A stretch of DNA of 64,000 nt from an uncultured Kiritimatiellota bacterium (GTDB taxonomy: Bacteria; Verrucomicrobiota; Kiritimatiellia; RFP12; DVOR01): NCBI GenBank assembly GCA_944389585.1, contig CALXMW010000007.1:11372-75371 (forward strand), read 5' to 3'. The notes under the pieces are model-generated. The model searched no databases. It had not been told where the DNA came from and saw nothing but the letters and a program-made list of their open reading frames with translations. This document shows, in pieces, positions 1 to 14,742 of this stretch. A program made the position numbers and the translations under genes. The stretch's first letter is position 1, and each line of letters starts with the position of its first letter.

Positions 1-788
1 GTGGCCTCGACGAGGATGCCGCCCTTGAAGACGAGGGCGGTGCCGTCGTCGGCGGCGATCGTGGCGTCCACGCCGTTGATGCCGTTGACGGAGAGGCCGC
101 CGGTGATGGGCAGGTAGTCGCCGACGCCGACGGCGGAGCCCTCGGTGGCGATGATTTTGGCGAAGCCGGACTGCTTGGGGAAGTCCGCGGCGAAGGTGTA
201 GACGGCGCGGGTGTCGGCGCTGTCGTTGGGGTTGCCGACGGAGGTGGGATAGCTGCAGGCGTAGGTGACGTCGGCGAAGGCGTCGTCGAGGGTGGCGGTG
301 CCGACCATGGCCACCTGGCTGGCGGCGACGGGCGCGGGGGCGAAGGCCACCCAGAGGGTGAGGGTGCTCTTGGTCGTGTCCGCCGTGGAGGGGGCGACGG
401 TGAGGTGGACGATCTCGATTTCGCCCTCGTATTCGGGCGTTCCGGAGAGGAGCCCGATGGAATTGACGTAGCCCTCCAGCGCCCAGACGCCGTCCTCGCC
501 CAGGTCGTCGAGGGCGGCCTCGAGGGCGTTGACGCGGGAGCCGAGGGTGTCGGCGATGCCGGCGAGGTCGGCGACGGAGGCCTCGACGGAGGCGACCTGG
601 TTGGTGGCGGCGTTGACGGAGGCCTTGGTGGCGACGGTGTCCAGCGGCCAGATGGTCTGGCCGTCCGTGACGAGTTGGTAGCGATAGGGCGTGGGGGGCG
701 CGGGCGGCGTCTCCGCCGCGGACGCTGCGCGGCTCCCACAAAGGACACAAAGGGCCGCAAAGAGCACAAAGTGTTTCATGGTTTTCAT
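1..788 (-). CDS. Prophage protein with signal-peptide-like N-terminus (3' end outside window)
   Basis: Manual translation from ATG 788: MKTMKHFVLFAALCVLCGSRAASAAETPPAPPTPYRYQLVTDG..., open to the window edge. Starts 5 nt after the stop of the upstream gene. Confidence 0.75.
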   Translation of the reverse strand, partial: MKTMKHFVLFAALCVLCGSRAASAAETPPAPPTPYRYQLVTDGQTIWPLDTVATKASVNAATNQVASVEASVADLAGIADTLGSRVNALEAALDDLGEDGVWALEGYVNSIGLLSGTPEYEGEIEIVHLTVAPSTADTTKSTLTLWVAFAPAPVAASQVAMVGTATLDDAFADVTYACSYPTSVGNPNDSADTRAVYTFAADFPKQSGFAKIIATEGSAVGVGDYLPITGGLSVNGINGVDATIAADDGTALVFKGGILVEA

Positions 789-793
789 CGGCT

Positions 794-2449
794 TCAGTCC
801 TCCACGGGTTTCATGGCGAAGGTTTGGAAGGTGTCGTCCCAGCCCCAGCGGTAGGTGACGCCGCCGGCGGTGGCCTGGACGGAGGAGAGGGGCGCGTAGA
901 GGCCCTCGATCTGGGCGAGGAGCTGGGTTTTGGCGGCGGCGACGGCGGCGGCGATGGCGGCGTCCACCTCGCTCTTGGTGTAGGTCTGGGCCTTGGGGTA
1001 GACGTCGGCGCTGTTGGCCTTTGGGGCGACGGCCTGGGCGATGGCCTGGTTGCGGGCGACGACCTCTGCGGCGATGGCCTGCGCGGTGGCGGTGGAGAGG
1101 GCGTTGTAGGCCTGCTGGACATTGGCCTGGATGGCGGCATTGGTCTGCTCGGCGGTGCTGTAGGCGCTCAGGTCGACGGTGGCGCCGAGGGCGTCCCAGG
1201 CCGAGCCCGTCCAGGCGACGTTCTGGCCGTCCTCGTCCTGGACGTTGTAGACGTCGCCGACGGCGGGGGCGGAGGGGAGGGCGGAGCGGGTGGCGACGCT
1301 GCCCTTGTAGTGGTAGACCCCCGCCACCTTGCCGTCCACCTCGGCCTTGGTGTACGTCTGCGCCTTGGGATAGACGTCGGCGCTGTTGGCCTTCTGGGCC
1401 AGGGCGGCGTCCAGCCCGGCGACCTGCGCGGTGGTGTGGGTGTGGGTCTTCTCTGCTTTCTGGTCGAGGGCGGCCTTGACGGCCTTGGAGGAGGGGACCC
1501 AGTCGATGGCGTCGGCGGAGTTTGCGTGGGCGATTGTCTCGCGGTCGATTTGGAGGGCGAGGGTGACCTTCTGGACGTAGCCGACGGACTCCGGGGTGAC
1601 GGTGACGGGCTTGGTGGCGGCGAGGTCGCCGATGCGCAGGATGGACTTCGGCTGGTTTCGGTTCTGCGGGCCGATGAGGTAGCGCTCCACCACCGTCTCA
1701 TCCGCGCCGAAGGCGGTGATGGACTCGCGCTGATACATGGTGACGAAGGCGTCGTCTTCGGGCTTTGCGCCCTGCTTGCCGGAGACGGCGAAGCCGCCCT
1801 GGGTGCCGTTTTGGGTGACGAGTGCGGTTTTGCCGTGGGTGTCGGGGTCGGCGTGTTCGCCGGGGGCGAGGAGGGGGACGCAGCGCTTGGCGTGGCCCTG
1901 CAGGGCGGTTTCGAGTGCGTTGTCGGCCTGTTGCCGGGCCTGGGTCTCGTCCTTGAGGGCGTCCTGGAGTTTGTCGAGCTGGGATTCGGGGAGGCGCTGT
2001 GCGGGGGTGAAGCCCGGGGAGGGGGCGAGGTCGAGGGCGCCGTAGGCGCGGAAGGAGGCGCCCTGGGGGGTGGTGAGGGCGAGGAAGAAGCGGACGCGGT
2101 CGTGGCCGGTGTCGCAGTCGGGGTCCCAGGTGGCGGAGAGGGTTCCGGCGGCGGGGTCGTATTCGCCGGGCTTTTCGTACCACTCGTCCTCGGCCATGCC
2201 GTCGGTCTGCCAGCGGAGTGCGACGGTGGCGCCGGAGAGGCCGGTGAGGGGCTGGGCGTATTGGGTGGGGGTGCAGGCGAGGGTGAAGGATTCGCCGTGG
2301 AAGGCCCGCGCCCGGAAGGGGCGCGGGGCGGAGACCTCGGTCTGCCAGGCGAAGCGCAGGGGCGCTTCGCTTCGTGAATCGAGAATCGCGAATGGCGAAT
2401 CGTTCGCCCCTTGCGGGGCGTCCAAGGCGGTTGCGTCCGTAGCGTCCAT
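794..2449 (-). CDS. Putative tail fibre / baseplate-associated protein
   Basis: 551 aa with RBS (AAGGAAAAG). Duplicated KANSADVYPKAQTYTK motif and a YKGSV..ALP..GDVYNV...WTGSAWDALG segment typical of fibre proteins. Lies downstream of the head genes. Confidence 0.55.
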   Translation of the reverse strand: MDATDATALDAPQGANDSPFAILDSRSEAPLRFAWQTEVSAPRPFRARAFHGESFTLACTPTQYAQPLTGLSGATVALRWQTDGMAEDEWYEKPGEYDPAAGTLSATWDPDCDTGHDRVRFFLALTTPQGASFRAYGALDLAPSPGFTPAQRLPESQLDKLQDALKDETQARQQADNALETALQGHAKRCVPLLAPGEHADPDTHGKTALVTQNGTQGGFAVSGKQGAKPEDDAFVTMYQRESITAFGADETVVERYLIGPQNRNQPKSILRIGDLAATKPVTVTPESVGYVQKVTLALQIDRETIAHANSADAIDWVPSSKAVKAALDQKAEKTHTHTTAQVAGLDAALAQKANSADVYPKAQTYTKAEVDGKVAGVYHYKGSVATRSALPSAPAVGDVYNVQDEDGQNVAWTGSAWDALGATVDLSAYSTAEQTNAAIQANVQQAYNALSTATAQAIAAEVVARNQAIAQAVAPKANSADVYPKAQTYTKSEVDAAIAAAVAAAKTQLLAQIEGLYAPLSSVQATAGGVTYRWGWDDTFQTFAMKPVED

Positions 2450-2518
2450 CGTTCTTTTCCTTCGCTTGGTTTGTCGCGCGCTTGCCGCGCGTCCGATTCA
2501 CGATTCGCGATTCACGGC

Positions 2519-2950
2519 CTAGTCGAGCACGTGGCCGTGCGAGACGGCGATTTCGGGGAGGGGGAGGGCGACGGCGTCGGGGGCCTCGAGGTTTTCCTCC
2601 TCGGGCGGGGCGTAGGAGACCTTGGCGAGGGCGTCGCGGACGGCCATGGCGCGGTCCCACTCGGCCACGCGGCGCTCGTCGAGGAGACTGCGCATGCCCG
2701 GCAGGCGGGTGAAGGCACGGTAGCGGAAGTCCGCGAGGATGTGGAGGAGGATCTCGGAGGGGACGGCGTCGGGGCGTTTGTCGAGGGCGGTGACGCGGCG
2801 GAGTCCGCCGCGCCAATCCTCGGCGACCTCGTGCGCGATGTCGGCGAGGGGGGAGTCTTGGCCCCAGCCGGCGGCGGCGCGGTCGAGCGCCTCGTGCTCG
2901 GGGGCGGTGAGGCGGGAGAGGAGAGAATCTGCGGTCAGAATCATCCACAT
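2519..2950 (-). CDS. Mu gp36-like head-tail connector (DUF1320-like)
   Basis: MWMILTADSLLSRL..., 143 aa, GAAGGGAG RBS, immediately after the capsid gene as in Mu. Confidence 0.65.
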   Translation of the reverse strand: MWMILTADSLLSRLTAPEHEALDRAAAGWGQDSPLADIAHEVAEDWRGGLRRVTALDKRPDAVPSEILLHILADFRYRAFTRLPGMRSLLDERRVAEWDRAMAVRDALAKVSYAPPEEENLEAPDAVALPLPEIAVSHGHVLD

Positions 2951-3311
2951 GGTGTGTGTGCTCCCTTCGGTCGCACGGTGAATCGTGAATCGTGAATCGC
3001 GAATCGTTGGTGGGTGGGGCTGCGCCCCACGCCCCTTCGGACGGCCCGCGCACCATTCGCGATTCGCGATTCGCCATTCGCGGGTTGCCCCGCCAGAGGC
3101 CCGTGGAGGGCTTCGTGGGGCTTTGGGGTGAAATCCTGCGCCGAAAATCTTTGCAACGATTCTGCGGGCTTGCAGGGGCCTTTGCAACGGCATTGCGCGG
3201 CGGGGCCGCGCGGAAGCTTGGAAGTTTGGAGACTTGGAAGGTTGGTTTTGGCTTCGCCGGTCGCCCTTCGGGCGCGCCAAGCCTCCAAGCCTCCAAACTT
3301 CCCGACGGCCG

Positions 3312-4220
3312 TCAGGCCGTCGCGGCGGAGACGAGGCGGACGCACTTTTCGGCCTGGGCGAGGGCGGCGCCGAAGACGATCTCGTGGGTGGCGTAGTTGG
3401 AGCCGGTGGCGGGGGAGCCGTGGCGGCGCGCACCGAGGACGAGGCCGGAGACTTCGTCGCGGGTGGTGCCGATTTCCTCATAGACGGAGGGGGATTTGAC
3501 GGGGACCAGGCGCGAGGCGACGACGAGGGCGTCGGTGGGGATGAGGGCGCCGTTGAGCTTTTCGTCGGCGGAGGTGGAGAGGTCGCTGTTCTCGATGACG
3601 GCCTTGAAGCCGTAGAGCCCCTCGACGACGCCGTGGCGGATGGCCTCGGGGCCGCCGTAAGCGTTGGCGTCGAGCGTCGCCAGCAGGGCGGCAAAAAGCG
3701 TGGGCGTCAGCATGAGGACGGTCTCACCGGGGTCGATGTCGGCCTTGGAGCAGGTGTCGCGGAGTTTGGCCACCGTTTCCTTGGTGACGGAGGCGAAGAC
3801 GGATTCGTTGGTGGCGGACTTGGGGATTTTGGTTTTGTTGATGAGGGCGGAGACGGAGGAGGCGATGGCCTTGGAAATGGCGACGCCGCTGGCCTCGCCG
3901 GCCTTGCTCCAGAAGTTGGAGCCGTTCACCTCCATGAAATCCTTGTCGGTGAAACCAAAGGTGTGCTTGACGTGGTGATCAAAGGTGACTTCGGGATAGA
4001 GAACGGAACCGTCGATCGTCTCGTAGTTGTTGGTTTTTTCGTTGAACTCGGAGGCGACGCCGTGCTTGAAGACCGGGACCTTCATGGTGGTGCCGGGCTG
4101 GACGGCCTCGCTGGAGAAGTCCGTTGCGAAGTAGACGACCCTGGCAAGGGCCTTGCGGGAAGCGACGATGGCCTTGTCGGTGGCGAAGGTCAACTGGGGG
4201 GAGGTGAGGGAAGTAGGCAT
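3312..4220 (-). CDS. Major capsid protein
   Basis: 302 aa, follows protease/scaffold, has coat-like GTTMKVP and C-terminal EIVFGAAL motifs, AAAGGA RBS. Confidence 0.8.
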   Translation of the reverse strand: MPTSLTSPQLTFATDKAIVASRKALARVVYFATDFSSEAVQPGTTMKVPVFKHGVASEFNEKTNNYETIDGSVLYPEVTFDHHVKHTFGFTDKDFMEVNGSNFWSKAGEASGVAISKAIASSVSALINKTKIPKSATNESVFASVTKETVAKLRDTCSKADIDPGETVLMLTPTLFAALLATLDANAYGGPEAIRHGVVEGLYGFKAVIENSDLSTSADEKLNGALIPTDALVVASRLVPVKSPSVYEEIGTTRDEVSGLVLGARRHGSPATGSNYATHEIVFGAALAQAEKCVRLVSAATA

Positions 4221-4273
4221 GGCGATGTCCTTTCTGGAAGTTTGGAAGTTTTGAGGCTTGGTTGCCTAGGGCC

Positions 4274-5245
4274 TCAGAGGAGGCCGCGCTCGATGGCGGC
4301 GCAGCGCTCCTCGGGGGTGCGGCAGGCGGCCAGGGGGTTGGCGGGCTCGGCGGGGCGGCGGGCGGCGGCGGCGTTGCAGACGGGGCGCGCGGCGGGCTTG
4401 GGCGCGGGGGCGGGGGACTTGAGGCAGGCCAGGGTGGCCTTGACGGCGTCGCGGTTGGTCACGTAGAGGCGCTTGAAGGCCTCCTTGTTGGCGATCTTGT
4501 CCTTGTTTTCCTCGGCGGCGGCCTCGGCCTCGGCGTTGAGGGCGGCCTCCTGCGCCTCGGCGGCGGCCTGGGCGAGGCCATCGACGGCCTGGAGGATGGC
4601 GGCGTCGTCGGCGTCGGGGCCGAGGCCGAGGATCTCGAGGAGGCGCGCGCGGAGGTCGGGCGCGGCGGGGGTGGGTTCGGTGGTGTCGGGTTCCATGGTG
4701 GTTCCTTTGTTGGGGGTGAAAACGTGAATCGTGAATCGCGAATCGCGAATCGTCTCGGGGTGGGGCTTCGCCCCACGCCCCTGCGGCTTGCCTGTCGCGG
4801 CACGCGGTTCCATTCGCGTGTTCAAGACCGGGCGGACGGGCAGATTGGGCTTGTTGGTGAGGCCGACGGAGACGAGGCGGCAGGGGCGGTCGTGAGAGTC
4901 GAGCTCCCAGACGGGGGAGAGGAAGCGGAGGCGGCGGTTGGAGACGGCGTCGGCCCCCGCGTCGGTGAAGCGGAAGGTGGCCAGCAACCCCTTGGCGGGG
5001 TCGACGCGCACGCGCTGGACCCAGGCCGCCGCCTCGGTGTCGCCCCCCGTCTCGGCGTGGTGCTCGAAGTCGACGAGGACCTCGGGGCGGAAGTTGGCCA
5101 CGACGGCCTCGAAGGCGGCGCGGTCGCAGCGCTGGATCACGCGCTCATCCCCGCGCAGGCCGGGGAAGGCGCCGTAGGGGGAGAGCTGCACCTCCAGCTC
5201 GTCGCCGGGTCGGATGGTCTTGGGAAGGGTCTGCGTCGCGTTCAT
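4274..5245 (-). CDS. Mu-like prophage I protein (head protease plus C-terminal scaffold)
   Basis: LVDFEH, AAAWV, RFLSPV and SVGLTNKP motifs of the Mu gpI family. In-frame internal ATG at 4696 with AAAGGA RBS. Confidence 0.88.
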   Translation of the reverse strand: MNATQTLPKTIRPGDELEVQLSPYGAFPGLRGDERVIQRCDRAAFEAVVANFRPEVLVDFEHHAETGGDTEAAAWVQRVRVDPAKGLLATFRFTDAGADAVSNRRLRFLSPVWELDSHDRPCRLVSVGLTNKPNLPVRPVLNTRMEPRAATGKPQGRGAKPHPETIRDSRFTIHVFTPNKGTTMEPDTTEPTPAAPDLRARLLEILGLGPDADDAAILQAVDGLAQAAAEAQEAALNAEAEAAAEENKDKIANKEAFKRLYVTNRDAVKATLACLKSPAPAPKPAARPVCNAAAARRPAEPANPLAACRTPEERCAAIERGLL

Positions 5246-5260
5246 GGCCCTAGTATCGCA
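5246..5260 (-). promoter_or_regulatory. Candidate late promoter, extended -10 (TGcGATACT), leaderless
   Basis: Hexamer ends 6 nt before ATG 5245, no Shine-Dalgarno, just downstream of a terminator. Confidence 0.5.
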
Positions 5261-5311
5261 CGGGGGGCGGGGGCGCTGAAGGGCAAGTCTTGCAACTTTG
5301 CCAAATCTGGC

Positions 5312-5345
5312 AAAAAACGAGCCGCCCGAAGGCGGCCCGTTTTTT
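5312..5345. terminator. Bidirectional intrinsic terminator ending the early operon
   Basis: AAAAAACGAGCCGCC-CGAA-GGCGGCCCGTTTTTT. Confidence 0.8.
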
Positions 5346-5473
5346 GGAAGCTTGGAAGCTTGGATGTTTGGAAGTTTGGAGGAGCGGAGGAGGTTGGGGC
5401 CCGGGCTGTCGCCTGCGGCGACGATGTGGCCGAAGGGGTGTGGGGCGGAGCCCCACCGCCTAGGGCCAAGCCT

Positions 5474-5791
5474 CTAAGCCTCCAAACTTCCCGCCTTCGC
5501 CTCGCCGAGGCGGACGCGGATGCCGGAGAGCTCGGCGGAGAGGCGGTAGGCGCGGTCGGTACCTTTGGCGATGAAGGCGCGGTGGGCCTTGAGGGCGTCG
5601 AGGAGCTCGGCCTCCTTGGCGAGTTGCCTGGCGCGCCAGTCGCGGTAAGCGTCGAGGCGCTGCTCGATTTCCTTGGCGCGCGCCAGGAGGCGTTGACGCT
5701 CTGCGCTGTCGCGCGGCGAATCGTGAATGGCGAATCGTGAATCGTTCGCCCCTTGCGGGGCGTCGGAGCTGTTCTGGCCGGATACTTGCAT
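5474..5791 (-). CDS. Small coiled-coil phage protein
   Basis: MQVSGQNSS..., GAGGG RBS, last gene of the early operon. Confidence 0.55.
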   Translation of the reverse strand: MQVSGQNSSDAPQGANDSRFAIHDSPRDSAERQRLLARAKEIEQRLDAYRDWRARQLAKEAELLDALKAHRAFIAKGTDRAYRLSAELSGIRVRLGEAKAGSLEA

Positions 5792-5883
5792 GGTTTTCCC
5801 TCGGTTTGCCTGTCGCGCGCTTGTCGCGCGCACGATTCGCGATTCACGATTCACCATTCACGGCGGCGTCAGCCGCCTGCCCG

Positions 5884-6435
5884 TCAGGCCTCCTCCGTCT
5901 TGGGCTCGCAGTAGAAGCGCTCGGTCTGGGCGACGCGCAGGCCGCAGGCGGCGAGGTCCTCGGCGTCGAGCGCCTTGCCGGCGACGGCGGCCAGGAGCGC
6001 GGCCTTGTCGAGCTCCTCGGTGGTGCGGACGTATTGGGGGAGGCGCTCCTTGACCATTTGGAGGGCCTGCTCGGCCTTGACGCGGGGGCGGAGGCGGACG
6101 GCGGGGTTGCCGAGGCGCCAGCCGATGGTGCCGTGGGTGAGGACGAGGCTGCGCTTCTCGCCGAAGGCGGCCTTGTGGAGCTCGGCCCAGGAGGCAATCT
6201 CCTCGGCGAGGGCCTTTTGGGCGGCGTCGAGGGCGTCGAGGTCGGCGGCGTAGCGGTCGCGGACGGCCTTGAGCTCGGCGTCCATCTTGGCGGTGAGGGC
6301 GCGGCGGCGGGCGTCCTTGAGGGCCAGCTCGCCCATCAAACGCTCGACGTCGTCGAGCGTTTGGGGCGAATCGTGAATCGCGAATCGCGAATCGTTGCGC
6401 CCCTTCGGGGCGTCAGGTGTGGGTTTCGTTTTCAT
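5884..6435 (-). CDS. gam: Host-nuclease inhibitor Gam
   Basis: Coiled coil followed by HGTIGWR, YVRTTEELDK and FYCEP, the Mu Gam pattern. Confidence 0.88.
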   Translation of the reverse strand: MKTKPTPDAPKGRNDSRFAIHDSPQTLDDVERLMGELALKDARRRALTAKMDAELKAVRDRYAADLDALDAAQKALAEEIASWAELHKAAFGEKRSLVLTHGTIGWRLGNPAVRLRPRVKAEQALQMVKERLPQYVRTTEELDKAALLAAVAGKALDAEDLAACGLRVAQTERFYCEPKTEEA

Positions 6436-6502
6436 GGTGGGATGTCCTTTCTGGAAGTTGGGGGTGTTTGTCGCGCGGCTTGCCGCGCGGGCGATTCGCG
6501 AT

Positions 6503-7162
6503 TCACGATTCGCGATTCACGAGCCTGACGCGGAAGAGGCGGGGAAGGTCCTTGCCGGGGGCGCGCCGGGGCGTCTTGAGCAGCGCGTTCACCGTCAGCA
6601 CGTAGCGGGCGTGGAGGTCGAAGGCCAGGCGCATGGGCCCGCGGGAGCCGTCGGGGAGCTCCTCCCACTTGGCGAAGGGGACGCGGCGGAGGAGGCGGCG
6701 GCGGTGGGTGTCGAGCATCTGGAAGAGGCGGTGGAGGCGGGGGAGGTCGAGGTCGAGCCACCACTCCTCGCCCTCGGCGTGGAGGGCGTCGCGCCAGCCG
6801 GCCTGCGCGAGGACGCCGCGGAGGTAGGGGATGGCGCCGGGGGTCCATTGCTCGGCGAGGTCGGGGAGGGCTTGGGCGATCTCGAAGCACTGGCGGGCGC
6901 ATGCCTCGGCCATCCTGGCCAGGCGGCGGCCCTCGGCCGTTCCCCACCGCATGGCCTCGCCGTGGCTCTCGGCCAGGCGGCTGACGTGGGCCATCAGGCG
7001 GTCGAAGTCGGCGCCGGAGCCGACGGCCTTGAGGCTGGGGACGCCGCAGGCCTCGCGGACGATCTCGTGGCGCCAGGCCTCGCGTTCGCCGGGCGGGATG
7101 CACTGCCGGTCGCACGCCTGTTGGAAGACCTTGAAAAAGGCGACTCTCTGTTTGTCCGTCAT
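6503..7162 (-). CDS. GemA/gp16-like phage regulatory protein
   Basis: N-terminal WRHEIVREACGVPSLK..DFDRLM resembles GemA-like proteins. AAAGGAG RBS. Stop codon is supplied by a heptamer array. Confidence 0.45.
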   Translation of the reverse strand: MTDKQRVAFFKVFQQACDRQCIPPGEREAWRHEIVREACGVPSLKAVGSGADFDRLMAHVSRLAESHGEAMRWGTAEGRRLARMAEACARQCFEIAQALPDLAEQWTPGAIPYLRGVLAQAGWRDALHAEGEEWWLDLDLPRLHRLFQMLDTHRRRLLRRVPFAKWEELPDGSRGPMRLAFDLHARYVLTVNALLKTPRRAPGKDLPRLFRVRLVNRES

Positions 7163-7301
7163 GGTTCACTCCTTTCAGTCGTTCGCGCGAATCGTGAATC
7201 GTGAATCGTCTCGGGGTGGGGCTGCGCCCCACGCCCCCTCGTTGCTTCAATCCTCATTGTGGTATCCTTTTGCATGGTTTGATTCAGCATTTGGAGAAGA
7301 G

Positions 7302-7652
7302 ATGAAAACGTACCGTGACTTAGAGGCTTGGCAGGTCGGGATGGACTTGGTGGAGGCTGTCTATCACCTGGCCCGGCGACTTCCCGCCGAGGAACGTTAT
7401 GCGCTGTCGGACCAGTTGCGCCGGGCGGCGGTCTCGGTGCCGGCCAACATCGCGGAGGGCTACGCCCGGAACTCCCCGGCGGAGTTTCGCCGATTCGTGC
7501 TGATTGCGGCGGGGTCGTGCACGGAGGTGCAGACGCACCTGCTGATTTGCGAGCGCGTCGGGTTGCAAACGCGTGAGCAGACGCGCCCCGCGCTGTTGCT
7601 GACCGACCGGCTTGGCAGAATGCTCCATAAGTTGGCCTCCTCGTTGGGCTGA
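7302..7652 (+). CDS. Four-helix-bundle protein (23S rRNA IVP / TIGR02436, Avd-like fold)
   Basis: MKTYRDLEAWQ...EERYALSDQLRRAAVSVPANIAEG...FRRFVLIAAGS..EVQT signature. GGAGA RBS and TGgTATCCT -10 at 7260-7268. Confidence 0.92.
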   Translation: MKTYRDLEAWQVGMDLVEAVYHLARRLPAEERYALSDQLRRAAVSVPANIAEGYARNSPAEFRRFVLIAAGSCTEVQTHLLICERVGLQTREQTRPALLLTDRLGRMLHKLASSLG

Positions 7653-7697
7653 CGATTCGCGATTCACGATTCACGATTCACGGAGTTGGTGCGCGCG

Positions 7698-8783
7698 TTA
7701 GCGCGTCACCAACTCATACGCGCGGAGGACGTGGGGCCAGGCGAGGGGCTCGCCGCGCTTGGCGGCGAGGTTGCCGCCCAGGGCGAGGAGCTTGGTGTAG
7801 CGGTTGAGGCGCATATGGCGGAAGGTGGGGAGGGCCTCGGGCGGGGGCTCGGGCAGGCCGTAGGCCGCGGCCACCTTGAGGAGATCGCCCCACGGCAGGT
7901 CGTCGGGGAGCACCAGGCGCTTGATGCACCGCTCGCTGAACTGCTCCAGCCACCCCTTGAGGGGGCCCTGGATGAGGTCGTGGTCCAGCGCGCGGGTGCC
8001 GCAGACGACGAGCCCGCAGCCGGAGAGGTCGTGGAGCTCGCGGATATACTCCATGATCTTCATGGCGGCATGGCGGCCCGAGGAGATGGCGAGCTGGTGG
8101 AGCTCGTCGACAATGAGGAGGGACTTGGAATCGAGCGCCTGTGCGACGCGGCGGCGGAGTTGCTCGGGGGTGGCGCGGGTGGTGACGCCGCAGGCCTCGG
8201 CCAGGGCGAAGAGGGCGGTGCGGAAGCCCGGCGCCGCGGGCATCCGCACGTAGCGGACGACGTACTCCGAGCGCCGCTTGTATTCCAGCAACGCCGTGGT
8301 CTTGCCGAGCTGACTGGGGCCGACGACGATGGCGGGCATCTGGTGGATCAGCGCCAGGTCGCAGGTCTGGCGGATTTTCTCCCAGACGCTCGTCTCCACG
8401 AAGGCGGCGCTCGCCAGCTTGGCGCGCTCGGCGCGGAGGTGGCGGTATTGCCGGATCTTCTCGATGACGTTCTGCCAGGAGCCCTGATAGGCGCCGTTGA
8501 GGACGCGGCTGACGGTGGAGGCGTTGTAGCCGATGCGGCGCCCGGCCTCGGCGTAGCTGAGGCCCTCGGCGCGCATCTCGCCGATGAGCCAGAGCACCTG
8601 CGCGCGGTCGTCGCCGGTGAGGGTGCCCTCCTCCACCAGCGGCGCGAGCGCCCGGCTCACGGTGTCCGCGCTCATGAGGGCGAGGCCCGTGGGCGGCTTC
8701 GCCGCCGGTGAATCGTGAATCGCGAATCGCGAATCGTCCCGCCCCTGCGGGGCGACGGATTGCGCTGTGTGTGTCGTGTCCAT
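7698..8783 (-). CDS. MuB-like transposition AAA+ ATPase
   Basis: N-terminal HTH, Walker A GPSQLGKT, Walker B LLIVDE, directly after the transposase. Confidence 0.9.
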   Translation of the reverse strand: MDTTHTAQSVAPQGRDDSRFAIHDSPAAKPPTGLALMSADTVSRALAPLVEEGTLTGDDRAQVLWLIGEMRAEGLSYAEAGRRIGYNASTVSRVLNGAYQGSWQNVIEKIRQYRHLRAERAKLASAAFVETSVWEKIRQTCDLALIHQMPAIVVGPSQLGKTTALLEYKRRSEYVVRYVRMPAAPGFRTALFALAEACGVTTRATPEQLRRRVAQALDSKSLLIVDELHQLAISSGRHAAMKIMEYIRELHDLSGCGLVVCGTRALDHDLIQGPLKGWLEQFSERCIKRLVLPDDLPWGDLLKVAAAYGLPEPPPEALPTFRHMRLNRYTKLLALGGNLAAKRGEPLAWPHVLRAYELVTR

Positions 8784-8798
8784 TGTGTACTCCTTGGG

Positions 8799-11057
8799 TT
8801 AGATCAAATCGTCCATGGTGGCGCCGGCGAGGCCGTGGCCGGAAGCTTGGAGGCTGGCCGTGGAAGGTTTGGCGCGTTGCGCCTGCACGGGAAGGTTGGA
8901 GGCTTGGCTTTCGGGGCGGGGGTCGGCCCGTCGCCCGTCAGGGCGCATCGATTCGCGATTCACGATTCGCGATTCACCCTGCGCCTCCGCGAGGAGGTGC
9001 TTGTTCCACGCCACATCGGCCTGGTGCTCCGCGGCGCGGCGCTCGGCCCAGGGGAGGATCTCGCGGCGCTCGAGGGCCTGGATCTTGGCGCGGATCTTGA
9101 GGTTGGCCGCCACGCCCTCGGGGTCGTCCTGGTGGCTGGGGGCGAGGACGGGGGCGAGGCCGAGGTAGCGCCAGGAGCCGTCCTTGGCGGGCTCGGCGAC
9201 GTAGGCGACGAGCGGTTCGAGGGGGTTGACCCAGACCAGCGCCTCCTGGCCGCGGCGGAGGAGCCGCTCCTCGCCCTCGGGGGTCCGGACGACGCCGGCG
9301 ACCGTGGCGGCGAAGTCGATGGCGGGGTCCTTGACGCGGAGCTCCACCTTGGCGGAGACGGTGGCGCGCATGGCGAGGCCCTCGCCGAGGATGAGGGGCA
9401 TGAAGGCGCGGTCGGCGCGGATGACGTCGCCCTCCCGCCGCTCCCACGCCTCGGCGGGGGAGAGGCGGCGGGCGCGGGTGAGGGCGGGGTCGGCCTCGAG
9501 GGCGGCGCGGACGGCGGCGGCGACGGCGGGGGGCAGCCCCTCGAGGTCGGCCAGCGGCCGCCAGGGCTCGCGGGGGCCCAACCGCCAGGCGGTCTCCACG
9601 AAGCCCTGTTCCGCCCACCCCTCGAGGGCGTGGTCGGTGCGGCCGTTGAGCTCCGCCACGGCCTCGGCCACCAGCGCGGCATAGTCCTGGAAGGGGAGGT
9701 AGGGCCAGCGGAGGCGGGCGGGGAGGTCGGGGTCGCGGGCGGCGAGGGCGCGGCAGGCGCGGAGGAGGGCGGCCTCGGCCTTGTCGCGGGCGTAGAGGTC
9801 CTCGGGCGCGGCGTCGCGGTCCTTGCCGACCTGCCCGGGCACGTCGGCCAGCAAATCGTGGAGGAGGCTGTGGTTGCCTTCGAGCCGCGCCTTGAAGCGG
9901 AAGTTGCCGCGGGGGCGGCCCTCCCAGAGGCCCTGCGCGAGAGGCTTGGAGAGCTTGCCGCCGGCCAGGAAGCGGACCTTCCCGCCTGTCGCCGCTTCCA
10001 CGGCGGCGGCGAGGCGCTTGTCGGCGGCGGCGGTGCCGTGCTCGCCCATCACCGTGGCCCCGCCGGGGGCGTAGCCCTGGACGATGAGCCAATAACCGAT
10101 GAGGTAGGGCATCATGCGGGCCATGACGACCTCGCGCGTGCCGTCGTCGCGGCGCCGGATGGGCTTGAGGAGGTAGCTGCGGAAGCCGGTGGCCACGTCG
10201 AGCAGCGCGAGCTCGACGCACCGCTCGGCGGGGGCGCCGTCGGCCGCGCGGACCTTGACGTCGTGCCACATGTCGTCGATCTCGACGATCTGCCCGCGCA
10301 GGAGCCCGGCGCGCGTGCGGGGGACGGAGGGGAGGAGGGCGCTCGCCGCCAGCGTCCCCTGCCGCGCGGCGGTGAGCGCCCACTTGGAGGGGAGCAGCCG
10401 CATGAGGTTGGCCTTGCTCCACCCCGCGGGGAGCAGCACGCCCGCGCGGTAGGGGCACACGGCCGGCGCCTCGCGCCCGGGGAACTCCGCCGCGTAGAGC
10501 TGCCGCCACGTGCCCACCCCGGGGATGGCCTCGCCCGCGCGGAGGTGGGCGAGGAGCTTATCCCAGGCGCGGCTGGAGACGCGCTGATTCTGGAGGACCA
10601 GGCCGCGCCAGAACTGGACGAAGGCGGCGTTGGCGGCGACCCCCGCGGGGGCGGCGTGGGCGGCCGCGGGCACCAGCGCCTCCCACCCGCGGCCGGGACG
10701 CTCGGCCTCGCGCCGACGCCACGCCGCGGCCTTGCGGTAAAGACTCTTCAGGCTCAGGCCGCGGAGCCCCGCGTGCTCGGCGGCGAGGCGTGCGGCGACG
10801 AGCGCGCGCCCCTCGGGCGGGGCGGCGAGGAAGGCGTGCATCACCCCCACCCATTCCCGCAGCTCCCCCAGCTGACGCGCCGTCAGACGCCCCGCCAGCC
10901 GCGCCCAGTCCTCGGCGGGGATGGCGCAGGGCGGCTGCGCCGCCGCGTGAATCGTGAATCGCGAATCGTGAATCGCTTCGGGGTGGGGCTCCGCCCCACA
11001 CCCCTTCGTCCCCTCGACCCCGAGGGCGACCAAGCCGTTTGCGTTCACTGGTTCCAT
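8799..11057 (-). CDS. MuA-like transposase
   Basis: Start MEPVNA with AAGGAAAGG RBS. Integrase-core motifs EIDDMWHD, LLDVATG, EHG and KARLEG. Paired with a B-like ATPase. Confidence 0.87.
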   Translation of the reverse strand: MEPVNANGLVALGVEGTKGCGAEPHPEAIHDSRFTIHAAAQPPCAIPAEDWARLAGRLTARQLGELREWVGVMHAFLAAPPEGRALVAARLAAEHAGLRGLSLKSLYRKAAAWRRREAERPGRGWEALVPAAAHAAPAGVAANAAFVQFWRGLVLQNQRVSSRAWDKLLAHLRAGEAIPGVGTWRQLYAAEFPGREAPAVCPYRAGVLLPAGWSKANLMRLLPSKWALTAARQGTLAASALLPSVPRTRAGLLRGQIVEIDDMWHDVKVRAADGAPAERCVELALLDVATGFRSYLLKPIRRRDDGTREVVMARMMPYLIGYWLIVQGYAPGGATVMGEHGTAAADKRLAAAVEAATGGKVRFLAGGKLSKPLAQGLWEGRPRGNFRFKARLEGNHSLLHDLLADVPGQVGKDRDAAPEDLYARDKAEAALLRACRALAARDPDLPARLRWPYLPFQDYAALVAEAVAELNGRTDHALEGWAEQGFVETAWRLGPREPWRPLADLEGLPPAVAAAVRAALEADPALTRARRLSPAEAWERREGDVIRADRAFMPLILGEGLAMRATVSAKVELRVKDPAIDFAATVAGVVRTPEGEERLLRRGQEALVWVNPLEPLVAYVAEPAKDGSWRYLGLAPVLAPSHQDDPEGVAANLKIRAKIQALERREILPWAERRAAEHQADVAWNKHLLAEAQGESRIVNRESMRPDGRRADPRPESQASNLPVQAQRAKPSTASLQASGHGLAGATMDDLI

Positions 11058-11136
11058 GTTGCCTTTCCTTCGCTTGCTTTGTCGCGCGGCCCGCCGCGCG
11101 CCCGATTCACGATTCACGATTCGCGATTCACGGCGT

Positions 11137-11949
11137 TCACGCATCCGCGTGGACGACCTCATGGAGGAGGTCGATGGCGTCGCGGAGGGTGTGGAGGTCG
11201 GTGGGGGTGAGGGCGGCGTGGCGGCGCTGGCGCACGATGAGGTCGGAGAGGCGGTCGAGGGGCTCGGAGAGCTCCTTCCACGCGATCTCGGGACTCGCAT
11301 CGAGGGCGGCGGCGAAGTCCTTCGCCTTCCGCCCCGCGCCCTCGCGCTTCCCGCCCAGGCGGAGGATGGACCGCTGACTGCGGCCCGCGAGAAACTCGCG
11401 GACCTTGTCAGGGTCGGGTGAATCGTGAATCGTGAATCGCGAATCGTTGGACGCCCCCTGCGGGGCGTCGGGCAAGGCTGTGGCCGCGCCGCCCTCCGCC
11501 TCGTCGGCCAAGGCCAGCGCCGCGACCGTCTTCTCCGCCACCGCGAGAAAACGGCAAGCGGTCTTGTAGTTGATTTCAGGGCAGTGGATGGCCAACCACC
11601 CTTTCAGCCCCATCCCGCGGTTCCAGCCGTGCATGTCATCGAAGCTTTTCCCCGCAGTCTCACGTGCGAGAACGCGGGAGGAGCCCTCTATTTGCAAGGG
11701 TTCGGCGGTTTGCCCGTCGCCCGTCAGGGCGTACGATTCACGATTCGCGATTCGCGATTCACCGGCGGCCGTCTCGGCCGCCTCGGCGTCTTCGAGGCGC
11801 TCTTTCACGGCGCGGAGCATCATGCCGAATTGGTAGGCCTCGTAGAGGCCGTCGAGGGCCTTTTGGTACTGCCGGGTCAGCATCGCCACGTCCTCGGCGG
11901 TGGGCTCGAGGGATTGGGGCTGCAGGGTCATTGCAAGGGTGTTGTCCAT
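11137..11949 (-). CDS. DUF3102-like phage protein with in-frame repeat insertions
   Basis: G..LRAVKERL...LKGWL...INYKTACRFL pattern, AAAGGA RBS. Confidence 0.55.
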   Translation of the reverse strand: MDNTLAMTLQPQSLEPTAEDVAMLTRQYQKALDGLYEAYQFGMMLRAVKERLEDAEAAETAAGESRIANRESYALTGDGQTAEPLQIEGSSRVLARETAGKSFDDMHGWNRGMGLKGWLAIHCPEINYKTACRFLAVAEKTVAALALADEAEGGAATALPDAPQGASNDSRFTIHDSPDPDKVREFLAGRSQRSILRLGGKREGAGRKAKDFAAALDASPEIAWKELSEPLDRLSDLIVRQRRHAALTPTDLHTLRDAIDLLHEVVHADA

Positions 11950-12107
11950 CTTTGTGTCCTTTTGGAAGTTTGGAGGCTTGGAAGTTAGCCGTGGAAGGTT
12001 TGGCGCTTTGCGCCTGCACGGGAGGCTTGGTTTCTCCGTCGCCCCGCAGGGGCGCACGATTCACGATTCGCGATTCACGATTCACGGGGCGTCTAGGCGC
12101 CTCGCGC

Positions 12108-12374
12108 CTAGACGCCCTCCGCCATATGGCGCGCCAGGGCGACGGCCGACTCGCGGGGGATTTTCCAGAAGGTCTTTTTGCCGGTGCCGGCGTTGAGGTT
12201 CACGGCCTCGAGGCGGCCTTCCTCGATCCACTCGGTGACGGTGGTGGTGGAGGCGCAGAAGGCCAACGCCACGTCCGCCACGCTCAGGAAGTCCTGCGCC
12301 GGCAGGCGCCGGAGCACCGTCCGCAGCCAGGCGGGCGGCGGGGCGAAGAGGTCGCCTTGGATGGGGCAGGCCAT
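12108..12374 (-). CDS. Excisionase/MerR-like HTH DNA-binding protein
   Basis: LSVADVA...TVTEWIEEGRLEA...WKIPRES pattern, AAGGAG RBS. Confidence 0.75.
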   Translation of the reverse strand: MACPIQGDLFAPPPAWLRTVLRRLPAQDFLSVADVALAFCASTTTVTEWIEEGRLEAVNLNAGTGKKTFWKIPRESAVALARHMAEGV

Positions 12375-12400
12375 GGGGCGTCTCCTTTGCGGCCTGGCGC

Positions 12401-12562
12401 TCAGCGCAGGACGGCGTCGGCCTCGGCCTCGTCGCCATGGAGCCAAAACCACAGCGCGTCGGCCAGCCGCTTGCGGCGACTGCCCGCAGGCAGCCCCTTC
12501 CATGCCCACAGCAGCCGCGACAGCGGCCCCGGGCGGAACGATTCCTCGTGAAATGCTCTCAT
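12401..12562 (-). CDS. Small hypothetical phage protein
   Basis: 53 aa, strong AAAGGAGG RBS, in the early operon. Confidence 0.55.
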   Translation of the reverse strand: MRAFHEESFRPGPLSRLLWAWKGLPAGSRRKRLADALWFWLHGDEAEADAVLR

Positions 12563-12594
12563 GGTGTCCTCCTTTGGTTTGGGTTCTCTGAAAA

Positions 12595-12822
12595 TCAGCG
12601 GGCCAGGTGGCGGTCGAGCGCCGCCCGCGCCTCCTGGCTGATGGAATGGCCCTCCGCACGCGCCCGGCGGTCGAGCGCCGCGTAGGTCTCCGGCGAGACC
12701 AGCAGGTTCACCCGCACGGTCCCCTCGGGAAACTGGCACCGCCGCCCGCGGGGGCGCCCGGCCATCGGCAGGGGGGCGGGGGCGGACAACGCGCGGAAAC
12801 GCGCCAGACCCACGCGGTTCAT
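12595..12822 (-). CDS. Ribbon-helix-helix (CopG/Arc-like) protein
   Basis: VRVNLLVSPETYAALDRRARAEGHSISQEARAAL, ATGA overlap with the upstream gene. Confidence 0.7.
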   Translation of the reverse strand: MNRVGLARFRALSAPAPLPMAGRPRGRRCQFPEGTVRVNLLVSPETYAALDRRARAEGHSISQEARAALDRHLAR

Positions 12823-13025
12823 CGCGCCGCCTCCGCCGCGCGCGCCTTCGCCGCCTGGCGCCCGGGCCGCCAGCCGCGCGCCAAGGCCGCCGCCTCGATG
12901 CGCAGGCTCCGCTTCTGCCCTGTCAGCACCCGGCTCACCGTCCCGGGGTTCACCCCGAGCTCCTCCGCCAGGGCGTTCACCCCGGCCCACGTCTCGCGCC
13001 GCCGCAACCGGCTCTTTGTCTGCAT
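12819..13025 (-). CDS. Ner/Cro-like HTH regulator
   Basis: VNALAEELGVNPGTVSRVLTG, divergent from the repressor and first gene of the early operon. Confidence 0.75.
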   Translation of the reverse strand: MQTKSRLRRRETWAGVNALAEELGVNPGTVSRVLTGQKRSLRIEAAALARGWRPGRQAAKARAAEAAR

Positions 13026-13083
13026 GCCTCTGTCCCTTCTTTGGTATACTGTCCGTGTAGGAGGGCAACAGTTGCCCTAGAAC

Positions 13084-13152
13084 ATGAAAGAATGTAGCAC
13101 GAAATCTTACATCAGGCAAGGAAAATCTTTCATTATGGACGAAAATCTTTCA
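13084..13152. promoter_or_regulatory. Candidate operator array in the lysis-lysogeny switch
   Basis: GAAA(A)TCTT copies at 13101, 13121 and 13141 (20-bp period) plus an imperfect inverted copy at 13084, between divergent HTH genes. Confidence 0.6.
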
Positions 13153-13515
13153 CTCCGCGAGATTAGGGAACGTCTGGGGCTTACACAACAAGAACTAGCG
13201 GACGCGCTTGGAATGGCGCGTGCCTATATTTCAGCAGTCGAAAGAGGCGCCAGCCCATTTTCTGACAAGTTTCGAAAGAAAGTTGAAAATCTTTCATTCA
13301 ATGGTAGGGCAGTTTCATTGCGTGACAATCACGGGGCGCTGGCGGTGGGGTCTCCGGGTGCGCGTGTGCACAACACGGCGACGCCAACCCCTTCGGGAGG
13401 CGAGCCGCCGGCCTGGGCGGAGGCGCTGCGGGACGAATTGCGGGGGGAGTTGGCACGGCTGCGCGGACAGCTGGCGGACATCCAAGCGCTGTTGGTGAAG
13501 CTGGCTGGGAAGTGA
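13135..13515 (+). CDS. XRE-family prophage repressor
   Basis: LREIRERLGLTQQELADALGMARAYISAVERG HTH with C-terminal coiled coil. No obvious S24 peptidase domain. Confidence 0.85.
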   Translation: MDENLSLREIRERLGLTQQELADALGMARAYISAVERGASPFSDKFRKKVENLSFNGRAVSLRDNHGALAVGSPGARVHNTATPTPSGGEPPAWAEALRDELRGELARLRGQLADIQALLVKLAGK

Positions 13516-13527
13516 GGAGATGGCGCT

Positions 13528-14256: not shown

Positions 14257-14310
14257 CTCTGCGTATTCGCAGGTGCTGGGCGTGCTGTGGCACAAACTGT
14301 GAGGGTTGCG

Positions 14311-14742
14311 ATGAAAAGCTTGTGCGGCGTTTTGGCGGCGCTTCTGCTCTTGGGGTGCGAGGCGCCCACTGTCCCCTCGCCCACCGCCGTCTCCCCGGCG
14401 CCTGCGGCGGCGGATGCCGCCCCGTCCTCCGCGGAGGGGGTGTTCGCCGCCGCGATCCGCGGCCGGCGGCCGGTGGCCTTTGTGTACAACGGGGTTGCGC
14501 GGGTGGCGCACCCGCACCGCCTGGGCCCCAGCGCGGCGGGGAACGGGAAGGTCCTCGTGCGTGCGTGGGAGGTGTCGCGCGGGGGCGAGGCGACGGGGAC
14601 GTGGAAGCTCTACGACGTGGCCAAGATCTCCGCCCCGCGCCTCCTGCCCGGCGCGCCCTTCGCCCCCGCCCCCGGCTACACCCCCGCCGACCGCGCGATC
14701 CCCGCGCCGTCGGCGGAGGTGCCCGCGCCGCAGGCGCGGTAA
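14311..14742 (+). CDS. Lipoprotein with WYL-like domain
   Basis: Lipobox LLLLG-C and Pro/Ala linker, then AIRGRRPVAFVYNG..RVAHPHRLG...VRAW...WKLYDVAKI...F....GY.P.D. Confidence 0.65.
   Translation: MKSLCGVLAALLLLGCEAPTVPSPTAVSPAPAAADAAPSSAEGVFAAAIRGRRPVAFVYNGVARVAHPHRLGPSAAGNGKVLVRAWEVSRGGEATGTWKLYDVAKISAPRLLPGAPFAPAPGYTPADRAIPAPSAEVPAPQAR

Follow-up and report, generated by a model that had tools for sequence, protein, structure and literature searches.

The DNA analysed, hereafter the window, is a 64,000-nt stretch of contig CALXMW010000007.1 (C7) from an uncultured Kiritimatiellota bacterium; it contains a Mu-like prophage with every gene on the minus strand, in which inverted arrays of about four heptamers, (GYGAATC)~4, are densely placed. 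The 13-mer GAATCGYGAATCG, with up to one mismatch allowed, matches the window 64 times, always within 2376-17493, against a mean of 0.21 in shuffled sequences, none of 100 of which reached 64; that the arrays are not a product of chance is confirmed. Across the rest of the 1.95-Mb genome (GYGAATC) arrays are near-absent: a strict scan placed 23 of 25 arrays within C7:5758-28779, and a looser period-7 census put 20 of the 22 arrays of this unit in C7:1-30000. Two further array sites lie upstream of the window (C7:8031-8144 and C7:5755-5785). An earlier, sequence-only reading of this DNA had seen no such arrays in 42 kb of host DNA, which holds for the GYGAATC unit, near-confined to the prophage, but not for arrays in general, as the chromosome carries analogous ones composed of different units (GGAGAAC heptamers, TTGGARGY octamers and CACAAAGGN nonamers). 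Arms comprise three to five units, mostly ~4.3-4.9, in line with the usual four noted earlier, and contigs from other samples of the same study carry the arrays unchanged (6353-7680, for example, with one difference). Every unit contains GANTC, which we take to be a methylase/HinfI-type site. CpG deamination was considered as the source of the Y/R variation and rejected, only one of the two expected variants being present.

Read on the coding strand, each element runs armL, GC hairpin A, an open stretch, GC hairpin B and armR (Table 1), with the orientation of the inner parts relative to the coding strand identical in 12 of 12 elements compared by eye. The basic module consists of about four tandem heptamers and a small GC hairpin, two facing modules making one element; in many copies GAC stands before hairpin B and after hairpin A. 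An S23p/PF05635 ORF, encoding a 23S rRNA IVS-type protein, occupies the loop of one element; the remaining 11 pairs lack one and would be miniature forms. Several elements are read through in frame and translated, namely two in the portal ORF, that in the Mu I protease/scaffold (I/Z) ORF and that in a 447-aa ORF; ORF L208:7467-8810 is open through an arm pair. This anatomy is well supported. Both left hairpin types and the TGTCGCG..GCGC hairpin recorded in the sequence-only reading are present, but its inventory had missed both portal pairs, the pair inside ORF 11137-11949 and the GGTAAAT array, and it had overlooked the translation of arms, the separate half-modules and the kinship with IVS-protein genes.

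Table 1. Repeat elements of the prophage and the IVS-protein gene, in window positions
Feature	Position	Strand	Remarks
Fibre-like gene start element	2372-2516	-	Encloses SD and ATG (ATG 2449); armR translated (..DAPQGANDSPFAILDSR..); MFE -65.1 kcal/mol, z -4.63
Parts of the fibre-like gene element	armL 2494-2516; hairpin A ~2471-2491; hairpin B ~2403-2425; armR 2372-2402	-	
'Empty' element	2976-3084	-	Arms and both hairpins, without SD/ATG; z -4.47
Element with degenerate armL	4721-4822	-	In frame in linker of Mu I protease/scaffold ORF (4274-5245); z -2.41
Start element of ORF 5474-5791	5714-5862	-	Encloses SD and ATG; hairpin B begins 27 nt past A of ATG; z -6.86
gam start element	6364-6522	-	Encloses SD and ATG (ATG 6435); stop of upstream ORF within armL
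Long element with IVS-protein gene in loop	7185-7683	-	armR 7185-7209; armL 7654-7683
23S_rRNA_IVP / four-helix-bundle protein gene (S23p family)	7302-7652	+	PF05635 1.2e-35, 122.3 bits; TIGR02436 116.4 bits
A-stop/B-start junction element	8706-8978	-	Encloses junction (B ATG 8783); armL 8950-8978 translated in A C-terminal tail, armR 8706-8737 in B N-terminal tail; loop also contains an octamer-armed element
Transposase A start element	10944-11133	-	Encloses SD and ATG (ATG 11057); armL begins 5 nt past upstream stop
In-frame arm pair	11416-11763	-	Inside ORF 11137-11949; flanks ~290 nt of coding sequence
Solitary armL with GC hairpin (half-module)	12055-12086	-	Upstream of octamer element and start 11949
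Solitary GGTAAAT array	14738-14768		GGTAAAT is a sister unit
Complete 'empty' element, portal ORF linker	17061-17178	-	Read in frame; z -7.75
Complete 'empty' element, portal ORF linker	17380-17498	-	Read in frame; z -8.82

The placement of the elements relative to genes is far from random. Arm pairs had been said to enclose the ribosome-binding site and ATG of five genes, and the mapped pairs bear this out at 2449, 5791, 6435 (gam), 8783 (B) and 11057 (A); the arrays described as ending just upstream of 2950, 4696 (an internal start) and 7162 have R arms that stop 26, 25 and 23 nt short of them, respectively. Within 700-12500, eight of nine pairs are start-associated, where random placement yields a mean of 2.1 and reaches eight or more in about 2 per 100,000 simulations, so the proximity to starts proposed earlier stands. 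Hairpin B begins exactly 27 nt after the A of the ATG at six of nine starts in three phages, a count that includes one start (g5791 of the G007 prophage) counted by hand from its second in-frame ATG, the script, anchored 6 nt upstream, having returned 33. In five of the eight start-associated elements armL either overlaps the upstream stop or begins no more than 22 nt beyond it. The idea that such arms act as a 'universal stop' was abandoned, TGA occurring in all three frames in just two of the six arms that follow stops. GTG units, counted by eye, account for 16 of 23 in post-stop arms and 7 of 19 in read-through arms, which is suggestive only.

In the predicted MFE and centroid folds the arms pair with one another, the paired cores being 25-34 positions long in 11 elements; z lies between -4.5 and -8.8 for five of the six elements folded and is -2.4 for the sixth, which has a degenerate arm. 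The stems of ~28 bp that had been envisaged as looping out the initiation region are recovered as predicted stems of 25-34 bp around SD and ATG, and the SD and AUG themselves are unpaired in these folds. We lean towards reading the arrays as the arms of IVS-type modular palindromic repeats, whose stems clamp initiation regions and offer sites to RNase III. In a polycistronic mRNA, an armL lying directly after or over an upstream stop would pair with an armR located either ~25 nt before the next SD or within the first codons, and in the second arrangement the two GC hairpins would border an open loop containing SD and AUG. Host RNase III would find a double-stranded substrate in the long stem, so that each junction could become a message-cutting site with initiation set apart from its surroundings, and a terminating upstream ribosome would melt armL. 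Against the clamp, SD and AUG stay out of the predicted pairing, and a cut in the stem of an SD/ATG-enclosing element would separate the start from its ORF, which makes the sign of the effect ambiguous. In vivo folding, cutting by RNase III and whatever influence there is on translation are our inferences; the start-clamping placement points to an undescribed way to cut and tune phage messages.

A strand-asymmetry test for RNA-level selection was negative, with 11 G.U pairs in the mRNA sense against 13 C.A (antisense G.U), and sense and antisense strands are predicted to fold about equally well; because arm pairing shows no strand asymmetry, hairpins at the DNA level or in the opposite transcript would fit equally. 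Complementarity fails at about half of the arms' Y/R positions, a point against the clamp. Both the symmetry and these uncoordinated positions would be expected if the elements were selfish palindromic repeats, neutral passengers that often insert or arise, with no role in phage gene expression, purged wherever they break genes and so seen just at junctions and in tolerant in-frame linkers. We regard this as a possible explanation, if a rather doubtful one. The in-frame read-through in the portal, I/Z and 447-aa ORFs is in keeping with it, as is the scatter of sister families over the chromosome; the start association of eight of nine pairs, the +27 position of hairpin B at six of nine starts (one re-anchored by eye) and the uniform orientation of the 12 elements sit poorly with it.

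Comparison with related prophages of the same genus bears on the same question. The gam, I/Z and g7162 junctions are bare of elements in the G001 prophage (86% nucleotide identity), which makes the elements dispensable there and weighs against the clamp; 423 nt (7248-7670) of the long element are missing from it, and both halves of the gam element are indels flanking a conserved native start. The I/Z element (4722-4819) is missing from the G001 DNA and so is a contiguous insertion in the window relative to an empty site in G001, and a variant contig without this element joins 4721 to 4827, skipping 105 nt; another variant contig skips 6367-6547. Both portal elements are indels relative to the G007 prophage, the first coinciding with a 35-aa gap in the G007 portal alignment and the second, a contiguous site, being taken in G007 by a translated octamer element. 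Presence and absence that differ between such close prophages and among variant contigs speak for neutral passengers. At gam and A/B, however, the two halves flank conserved native sequence and do not form the one contiguous insertion expected of a miniature inverted-repeat transposable element (MITE), which would require coordinated or selected pairing of facing half-modules. The related prophages also have the same architecture and the same junctions with different heptamer units, and junctions of the same type holding different units in different phages again argue against mere passengers; GGTAAAT is the main unit of the G009 and G023 prophages, and no fewer than four unit families occur in G007 alone. 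Complementarity between neighbouring arrays reaches 80% or more in 4/5 pairs in G023, 2/5 in G009, 7/11 in G008 and 3/17 in G007, against backgrounds of 23%, 26%, 23% and 9%, respectively. The operon-wide translational control suggested in the sequence-only reading is weakened, since close relatives lack elements at the same junctions. Modules are gained and lost quickly among this group of Mu-like prophages and persist just at gene junctions or, in frame, in protein linkers and tails.

The arms might instead act on the DNA itself, as inversion or deletion sites, as handles for module exchange or, since seven is not a multiple of three, as slippage switches that turn genes on and off. Some arms do lie in coding sequence and would shift the frame on gaining or losing a unit, every gene body is bracketed as well by the 28-bp inverted repeats, which alternate along the genome, and the DNA contigs contain two joints between opposite strands (2473/11098 and 10977/11746). 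We rejected these joints as inversions, their sides being just 32-36 letters long and lying within repeats, as expected of assembly-graph artefacts; no indels of seven or its multiples are listed in four runs, although contigs lose variants that are rare. Because the unit differs among related phages, arms could not direct exchange from one to another, and the recombination handles proposed earlier are unsupported; the essential genes A, B and portal would also be endangered. A DNA-level role is, in our view, highly improbable.

The RNA runs are represented as contigs only. One RNA-library contig covers the whole A-start element uncut (10946-11212), with DNA carry-over possible, and zero depth across 7265-7595 in the RNA-run contigs is not a sign of silence. 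The RNA-run joints 4721->4827 and 3035->3090 were rejected as splicing and are read as strain variants, because the run comes from another study and G001 DNA is without the I/Z element.

The IVS-protein gene runs antisense to the phage genes, with its stop directly beside an arm. Its setting has parallels on the chromosome, where inverted (GGAGAAC)4 arms or octamer arms stand on either side of PF05635 genes, and throughout the phylum: flanking inverted repeats score at least 15 at 18 of 27 testable PF05635 loci and 7-periodic arms occur at 15 of 27, each against 0 of 56 displaced controls, and the same score is reached by 18 of 27 arms with their own partners vs 7 of 702 with partners from other loci. 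None of 30 IVS-protein loci examined in the phylum lies in an rRNA gene, no Rfam family matches window positions 1-22000 or these 30 loci, and the phage elements sit in ORFs and junctions rather than in rRNA as S23p-type IVSs do. The match to RNase III-excised S23p-type IVSs, together with the presence of an RNase III gene in the host (47.8 bits, exceeding the cut-off), lends support by analogy to the dsRNA processing sites among the earlier suggestions, a role that we consider plausible; taken as a whole, the earlier interpretation is partly supported.

A protein partner raises another reading, in which an oligomeric nucleic-acid-binding protein would bind the arrays, each heptamer taking one subunit, and arm pairing would be secondary; candidates are a phage regulator or the S23p/IVS protein itself, reported as a homopentameric ring in the available text of Warrier et al. 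(2016, PMC4990558). An array size constant at 4-5 units and a unit invariant except at one position would suit such sites, as would the recurrence of the GAATCGY unit in 33 viral contigs and at least 120 stretches from many phyla. In the two pairs compared by eye, IVS-protein similarity also follows the arm unit (the window with G023, GAATCGY; G000-C3 with G006, GGAGAAC-type). We nevertheless judge this quite improbable. The arrays are overwhelmingly complementary pairs, at least four unit families coexist in the G007 prophage, and a small HTH-like protein beside the region is near-identical in phages with different units. Moreover, a search of the related prophage loci turned up no IVS-protein gene, and tblastn of the window IVS protein and 12 phage proteins against 153 unit-bearing loci gave nothing at E <=1e-3 or 1e-4 and two matches at E 0.15-0.8, single-query tblastn being weak for this family.

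A bolder and, we think, unlikely reading combines these threads: the array-plus-hairpin module would be a new mobile unit with the S23p/IVS pentameric ring as its partner, reused as junction parts by these Mu-like phages. One subunit per heptamer would then explain the four to five units per arm and the co-travel of protein and unit, and 23S rRNA IVSs would be just the best-known landing sites of a very widespread family. As seven equals 1 modulo 3, the upstream arm could offer a stop in any frame, and the downstream arm would be a frame-neutral linker brought into frame by gain or loss of units; the arms would present the initiation region with a constant +27 spacing, making junctions RNase III-controlled switches.

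Three findings bear on the origin, mobility and function of IVS elements and S23p proteins. In one phylum the S23p gene is regularly bordered on both sides by inverted arms of tandem heptamers, whose sequences are very diverse; forms without the ORF exist; and elements can saturate the gene junctions of a single phage, some of their arms being translated as protein tails. For genome annotation it matters that repeats encode part of the start codons, N-terminal tails and linkers of such phages, and that short-read assemblies break at the arrays. Close prophages with and without each element offer a tractable system for movement, RNase III cutting and translation.

Among known systems, the intergenic hairpins of phage T7 are said, from the work of Dunn and Studier in 1973, to be cut by host RNase III in the polycistronic message. 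The cuts leave defined mRNA ends beside ribosome-binding sites, and the 'empty' phage elements 23-26 nt before starts resemble these sites; to our knowledge the T7 hairpins are unique sequences with internal loops, neither repeat-built nor translated, and enclose no start codons. The Rickettsia palindromic elements that Ogata and colleagues described in 2000 are reportedly ~100-150 bp long, lie in frame within genes and are translated as an extra peptide, a likeness shared by the two portal elements, the I/Z element and ORF L208:7467-8810. We know of no heptamer arms, start association or IVS-protein cargo in the Rickettsia elements, which belong to a different lineage. Our literature search, which covered sources other than subscription journals, found no description of these phage arrays and, apart from a Coxiella paper, no general link between S23p and heptamer arms.

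The TAACTGA arrays of Beggiatoaceae, Cyanobacteria and Bacteroidetes are sets of 2-6 tandem heptamers, intergenic and mostly a few nt upstream of start codons, with a unit common to distant phyla, and a post-transcriptional role was proposed for their unknown function (MacGregor 2015, PMC4679880). Their unit is another one and the arrays are direct, with one inverted repeat among 170 sets, whereas the phage arrays are inverted pairs rather than forward arrays ending just before a start; the available text of that paper describes no hairpin modules, read-through or phage context. Correia repeat-enclosed elements (NEMIS) of Neisseria (PMC2649163) are small inverted-repeat junction elements reported to be co-transcribed with their neighbours and bound by RNase III, which either cleaves or protects them; they thereby alter adjacent gene expression, and they vary in presence between strains. 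As far as is known, they differ from the phage elements in having 26-bp unique arms in place of tandem heptamers, in inserting as one contiguous unit, in carrying no protein gene and in being chromosomal.

The closest counterpart is the Coxiella burnetii IVS, which, in the available text of Warrier et al. (PMC4990558), has a 28-bp terminal stem cut within by RNase III, tandem heptamers whose copy number in the arm varies, and an S23p ORF; it is called a selfish element of unknown mobility there, and the origin, mobility mechanism and function of IVS/S23p are given as unknown since about 1990. The phage elements differ in lying within protein-coding operons, most of them ORF-less, in having arms that are translated or enclose SD and ATG, in being composed of halves that are separate modules, and in that their single IVS-protein gene is antisense to the host transcript; they share with S23p-type IVSs the stem of ~28 bp (25-34 here) and the arms of tandem heptamers.

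The Mu-like prophage that fills approximately the first 20 kb of the window carries modular palindromes with long complementary arms, which are confined to the prophage, turn over fast and are read through in frame. It extends past the upstream edge of the window, to at least position 3400 of the source contig (C7:3400), and all of its listed genes lie on the minus strand. The region is also found in sequencing runs labelled chicken gut, and a record from an uncultured Verrucomicrobia bacterium has 66-84% nucleotide identity to seven pieces of this genome; the host is therefore probably a gut-dwelling member of the Verrucomicrobiota.

Coordinates of the principal prophage genes in the window
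Gene or product	Position	Strand
Terminase large subunit	18743-20491	-
Mu-type portal	16491-18746	-
Transposase A	8799-11057	-
B (AAA+)	7698-8783	-
Gam	5884-6435	-
Mu I protease/scaffold	4274-5245	-
Major head protein	3312-4220	-
Fibre-like protein	794-2449	-

The gene order is odd for a Mu-like phage, with terminase and portal, approximately 4 kb with plus-strand genes, A-B-gam, protease/scaffold, head and fibre following one another (794-20491). One plus-strand gene in this otherwise minus-strand prophage (15121-16008) strongly matches phrog_11747 (1.8e-70), and its product has weak matches to head-maturation/Clp-type proteases. The portal ORF has a C-terminal domain with a weak PBECR1 nuclease match (20.7 bits, below the cut-off of 27.6), and its heptamer elements lie in the linkers between the portal's two domains. 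A long GC hairpin, GGAGTTGGTGCGCGCG..CGCGTCACCAACTC, at 7683-7716 spans the B stop codon, just upstream of an armL.

Tandem GAATCGY heptamers and their complement are extremely over-represented in the prophage region; the 13-mer GAATCGYGAATCG, allowing at most one mismatch, occurs in 64 copies against 0.21 expected, a count that none of 100 shuffles reaches. Across the whole genome (1.95 Mb, 26 contigs), 23 of 25 strict arrays fall in C7:5758-28779, which upholds the sequence-only reading that the arrays are concentrated in the prophage as opposed to being equally dense genome-wide. A looser genome-wide census of period-7 arrays places 20 of 42 in C7:1-30000, a stretch that makes up 1.5% of the genome, including 20 of the 22 with the GAATCGY unit. 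The same arrays, unchanged, are present in contigs that the study obtained from further samples, so they did not arise as an artefact of assembling this record. Tandem repeats in the host part of the window, at 25921-26208 and 47713-47825, have units of 23, 34 and 18/36 bases.

On the coding strand each element runs from armL, (GYGAATC)~4, through GC hairpin A (GCGCG..CGCGC, then GAC and an A-rich run), an open stretch and GC hairpin B (CGCCCC-GCAA/GCAG-GGGGCG or GGGGCGTGGGGC-GNA-GCCCCACCCC) to armR, (GATTCRC)~4. Five elements hold the SD and ATG inside the open stretch (starts 2449, 5791, 6435, 8783 and 11057), and three 'empty' or cargo-bearing elements stop short of the starts at 2950, 4696 and 7162 by 26, 25 and 23 nt, respectively; that at 4696 is an internal scaffold start, and the element there is read in frame in the linker of the protease/scaffold ORF (I/Z). 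That arm pairs enclose or abut prophage gene starts, as had been proposed, holds for 8 of 9 pairs in 700-12500, against a mean of 2.1 under random placement (approximately 2 in 100,000 simulations reach 8), with a null that ignores the purging of repeats from coding DNA. The portal linker contains two complete empty elements, both in frame, a 447-aa ORF upstream of the window contains one arm pair, again in frame, and ORF 11137-11949 has one pair bracketing 290 nt; solitary halves occur at 12055-12086 and C7:5755-5785. Inner orientation relative to the coding strand is identical in 12 of 12 elements (judged by eye, the copies not being independent), to which coding constraints may contribute. 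Owing to the 7-base unit, armR yields one and the same cyclic peptide, DSRF(T/A)IH, whichever frame is read; the fibre-like protein, the product of the gene starting at 5791 (gp5791), Gam and B have this peptide in their N-terminal tails, and A, the portal and others have it internally.

With protein A as query, 10 of 24 further genomes from the genus proved to contain related prophages (36-92% identity), which are syntenic with that of the window. The prophage of one of these, G001, has 86% nucleotide identity to the window's over aligned columns, with the elements appearing as indels; neither the I/Z element nor the 423-nt IVS-protein cassette is present in G001. At the gam junction the window has two separate extra pieces relative to G001, armL and hairpin B with armR, which flank a stretch of SD, ATG and eight codons conserved in G001, a second relative (G007) and beyond (Gam compared: MKTKPTPD[APKGRNDSRFAIHDS]PQTLDD versus MKTKPTPDTPQTLED). 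The A-stop/B-start junction is conserved in three phages, bracketed by different repeats. As separate pieces flank conserved native stretches at both gam and A/B, these alignments suggest that gains come as half-modules, each an array with its hairpin, rather than as a single contiguous insert. In 3 of 3 phages compared, repeats encode the N-terminus of B and the reading frame stays open through them; the two portal elements are in-frame indels when set against G007. The element architecture recurs at the same junction types across prophages with other units, namely GGAGAAC as the main unit in G001, GGTAAAT plus GYGAATC in G009 and G023, GCTGTCR in G008 and G013, and at least four unit families in G007; neighbouring arrays in the related prophages are preferentially complementary.

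Other repeat families also occupy junctions. A second palindrome family has tandem octamer arms (TTGGARGY / RCYTCCAA) and a similar GC-hairpin core; its elements lie at 3212-3296, 4235-4251, 5344-5490, 8840-8910 and 11961-12040, and are scattered over many contigs as well as inside the prophage. One strand of the octamer is SD-like (GGAGG) and the other anti-SD-like, and an array in the CCAAGCYT orientation often directly precedes the SD (for example at the major head gene, and at gam and mcp of G001). Tandem 9-mers, CACAAAGGN, followed by a GC hairpin occur at 737-771 and in G001 (locus L166, ~14300-14440 and ~17640-17830), where they occupy some junctions that carry heptamer pairs in the window; the main unit, AAAGGACAC, forms 15 arrays in the genome. 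A junction repeat, ..TGGCAGTCCCGCG..GCCCCAAATCTGC.., recurs in G001 and G007 (L172 13100-13300 and 17990-18250; L166 17640-17830), and in G007 the fibre-like protein has an N-terminal tail translated from it. The gam junction of G008 (L176 10020-10480) has another repeat-plus-hairpin design, a series of GC hairpins each after GAGAGGTG, later followed by CATTCTCAC.

A PF05635 / TIGR02436 gene, of the S23p or IVS-protein family named from intervening sequences of 23S rRNA, sits in the loop of the element at 7185-7683, and the genome holds three further matches. Two chromosomal loci were examined with their flanks (G000 C3:224109-224643 and C1:120520-120980); one such gene lies between inverted (GGAGAAC)4 arms plus a GC hairpin, another between inverted octamer arrays. 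GGAGAAC is the arm unit at a chromosomal IVS-protein gene as well as the main unit of the G001 prophage. The family is present in 85 of 121 genomes sampled from the phylum, and 20 of 30 fetched loci have a 7-periodic best flanking inverted repeat, with very diverse units. Among the 27 testable loci (3 of 30 were dropped for short flanks), this repeat reaches a score of 15 in 18 and is 7-periodic in 15, versus 0 of 56 displaced controls on either count, and arms match their own partner in 18/27 loci versus other loci's partners in 7/702. None of the 30 loci lies within an rRNA gene. Kinship of the phage elements with IVS-protein elements is clearly indicated by these comparisons.

According to PMC4990558, the single paper found to link IVS, tandem heptamers and S23p, the Coxiella 23S IVS has a 28-bp terminal stem, GACAGAT tandem heptamers in variable number and an S23p ORF, is excised by RNase III within the stem, and is stated to be of unknown origin and mobility. 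Because their features agree with it, the window elements appear to have the build of an IVS, but in phage messages. (GAATCGY)3 is shared by 33 viral contigs and by at least 120 stretches of genomes belonging to many phyla, often in inverted pairs; among the matches listed, tblastn with 12 proteins of the window phage found no homologues nearby. One locus from an uncultured Verrucomicrobia bacterium (L127 230-1920) has three GTGAATC/ACGATTC pairs within 2 kb of an apparent operon; by eye, in two (~1060-1290 and ~1750-1920) the upstream TGA seems to come from the first unit, and the R arm stops ~10 nt short of an ATG.

Minimum free energy and centroid folds pair the arms together, enclose both small hairpins and leave SD and AUG largely unpaired in the loop. 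The idea that the arms form stems looping out the initiation region is thus borne out in prediction, with z of -4.47 to -8.82 in 5 of 6 folded elements (0 of 200 shuffles equally stable); z is -2.41 for the one whose armL is degenerate. Of 9 starts from three phages, 6 have hairpin B starting exactly +27 nt from the A of the ATG, one of them, the G007 counterpart of the 5791 gene, counted by hand from the second ATG (the script's in-frame ATG, 6 nt upstream, gives 33); in the other three it starts at 21, 36 and 53 nt. Hairpin A, which the script located in four window elements, ends 22, 25, 25 and 36 nt upstream of the ATG.

We suggest that the arms would form 25-34-bp duplexes in polycistronic RNA, which would expose the initiation region as an open loop flanked by hairpins A and B or, alternatively, stand ~25 nt before the SD in the manner of T7 processing hairpins. 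By analogy, RNase III, for which the host genome encodes a gene, could cut these duplexes, and a ribosome terminating on the upstream ORF would melt armL; among the 8 start-associated elements, 5 have the upstream stop inside armL or no more than 22 nt from it. Against such a mechanism, half of the Y/R positions in the arms are unpaired, close relatives do without the elements, which are dispensable there, and cleavage of a stem that encloses a start would separate that start from its own ORF; the main rival reading is that the elements are neutral selfish repeats. Strand asymmetry was not found either (11 G.U pairs in mRNA sense versus 13 in antisense), which counts against an RNA-level mechanism; that the arrays act at the DNA level, or are protein-binding sites, is considered less likely.

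In the main texts of openly accessible literature, we found no description of phage heptamer arrays of such build, nor of S23p genes generally embedded between tandem-heptamer arms. The window elements resemble S23p-type IVSs, Correia elements, Rickettsia palindromic elements, TAACTGA heptamer arrays and T7 RNase III sites, and have some, not all, of the defining features of each.
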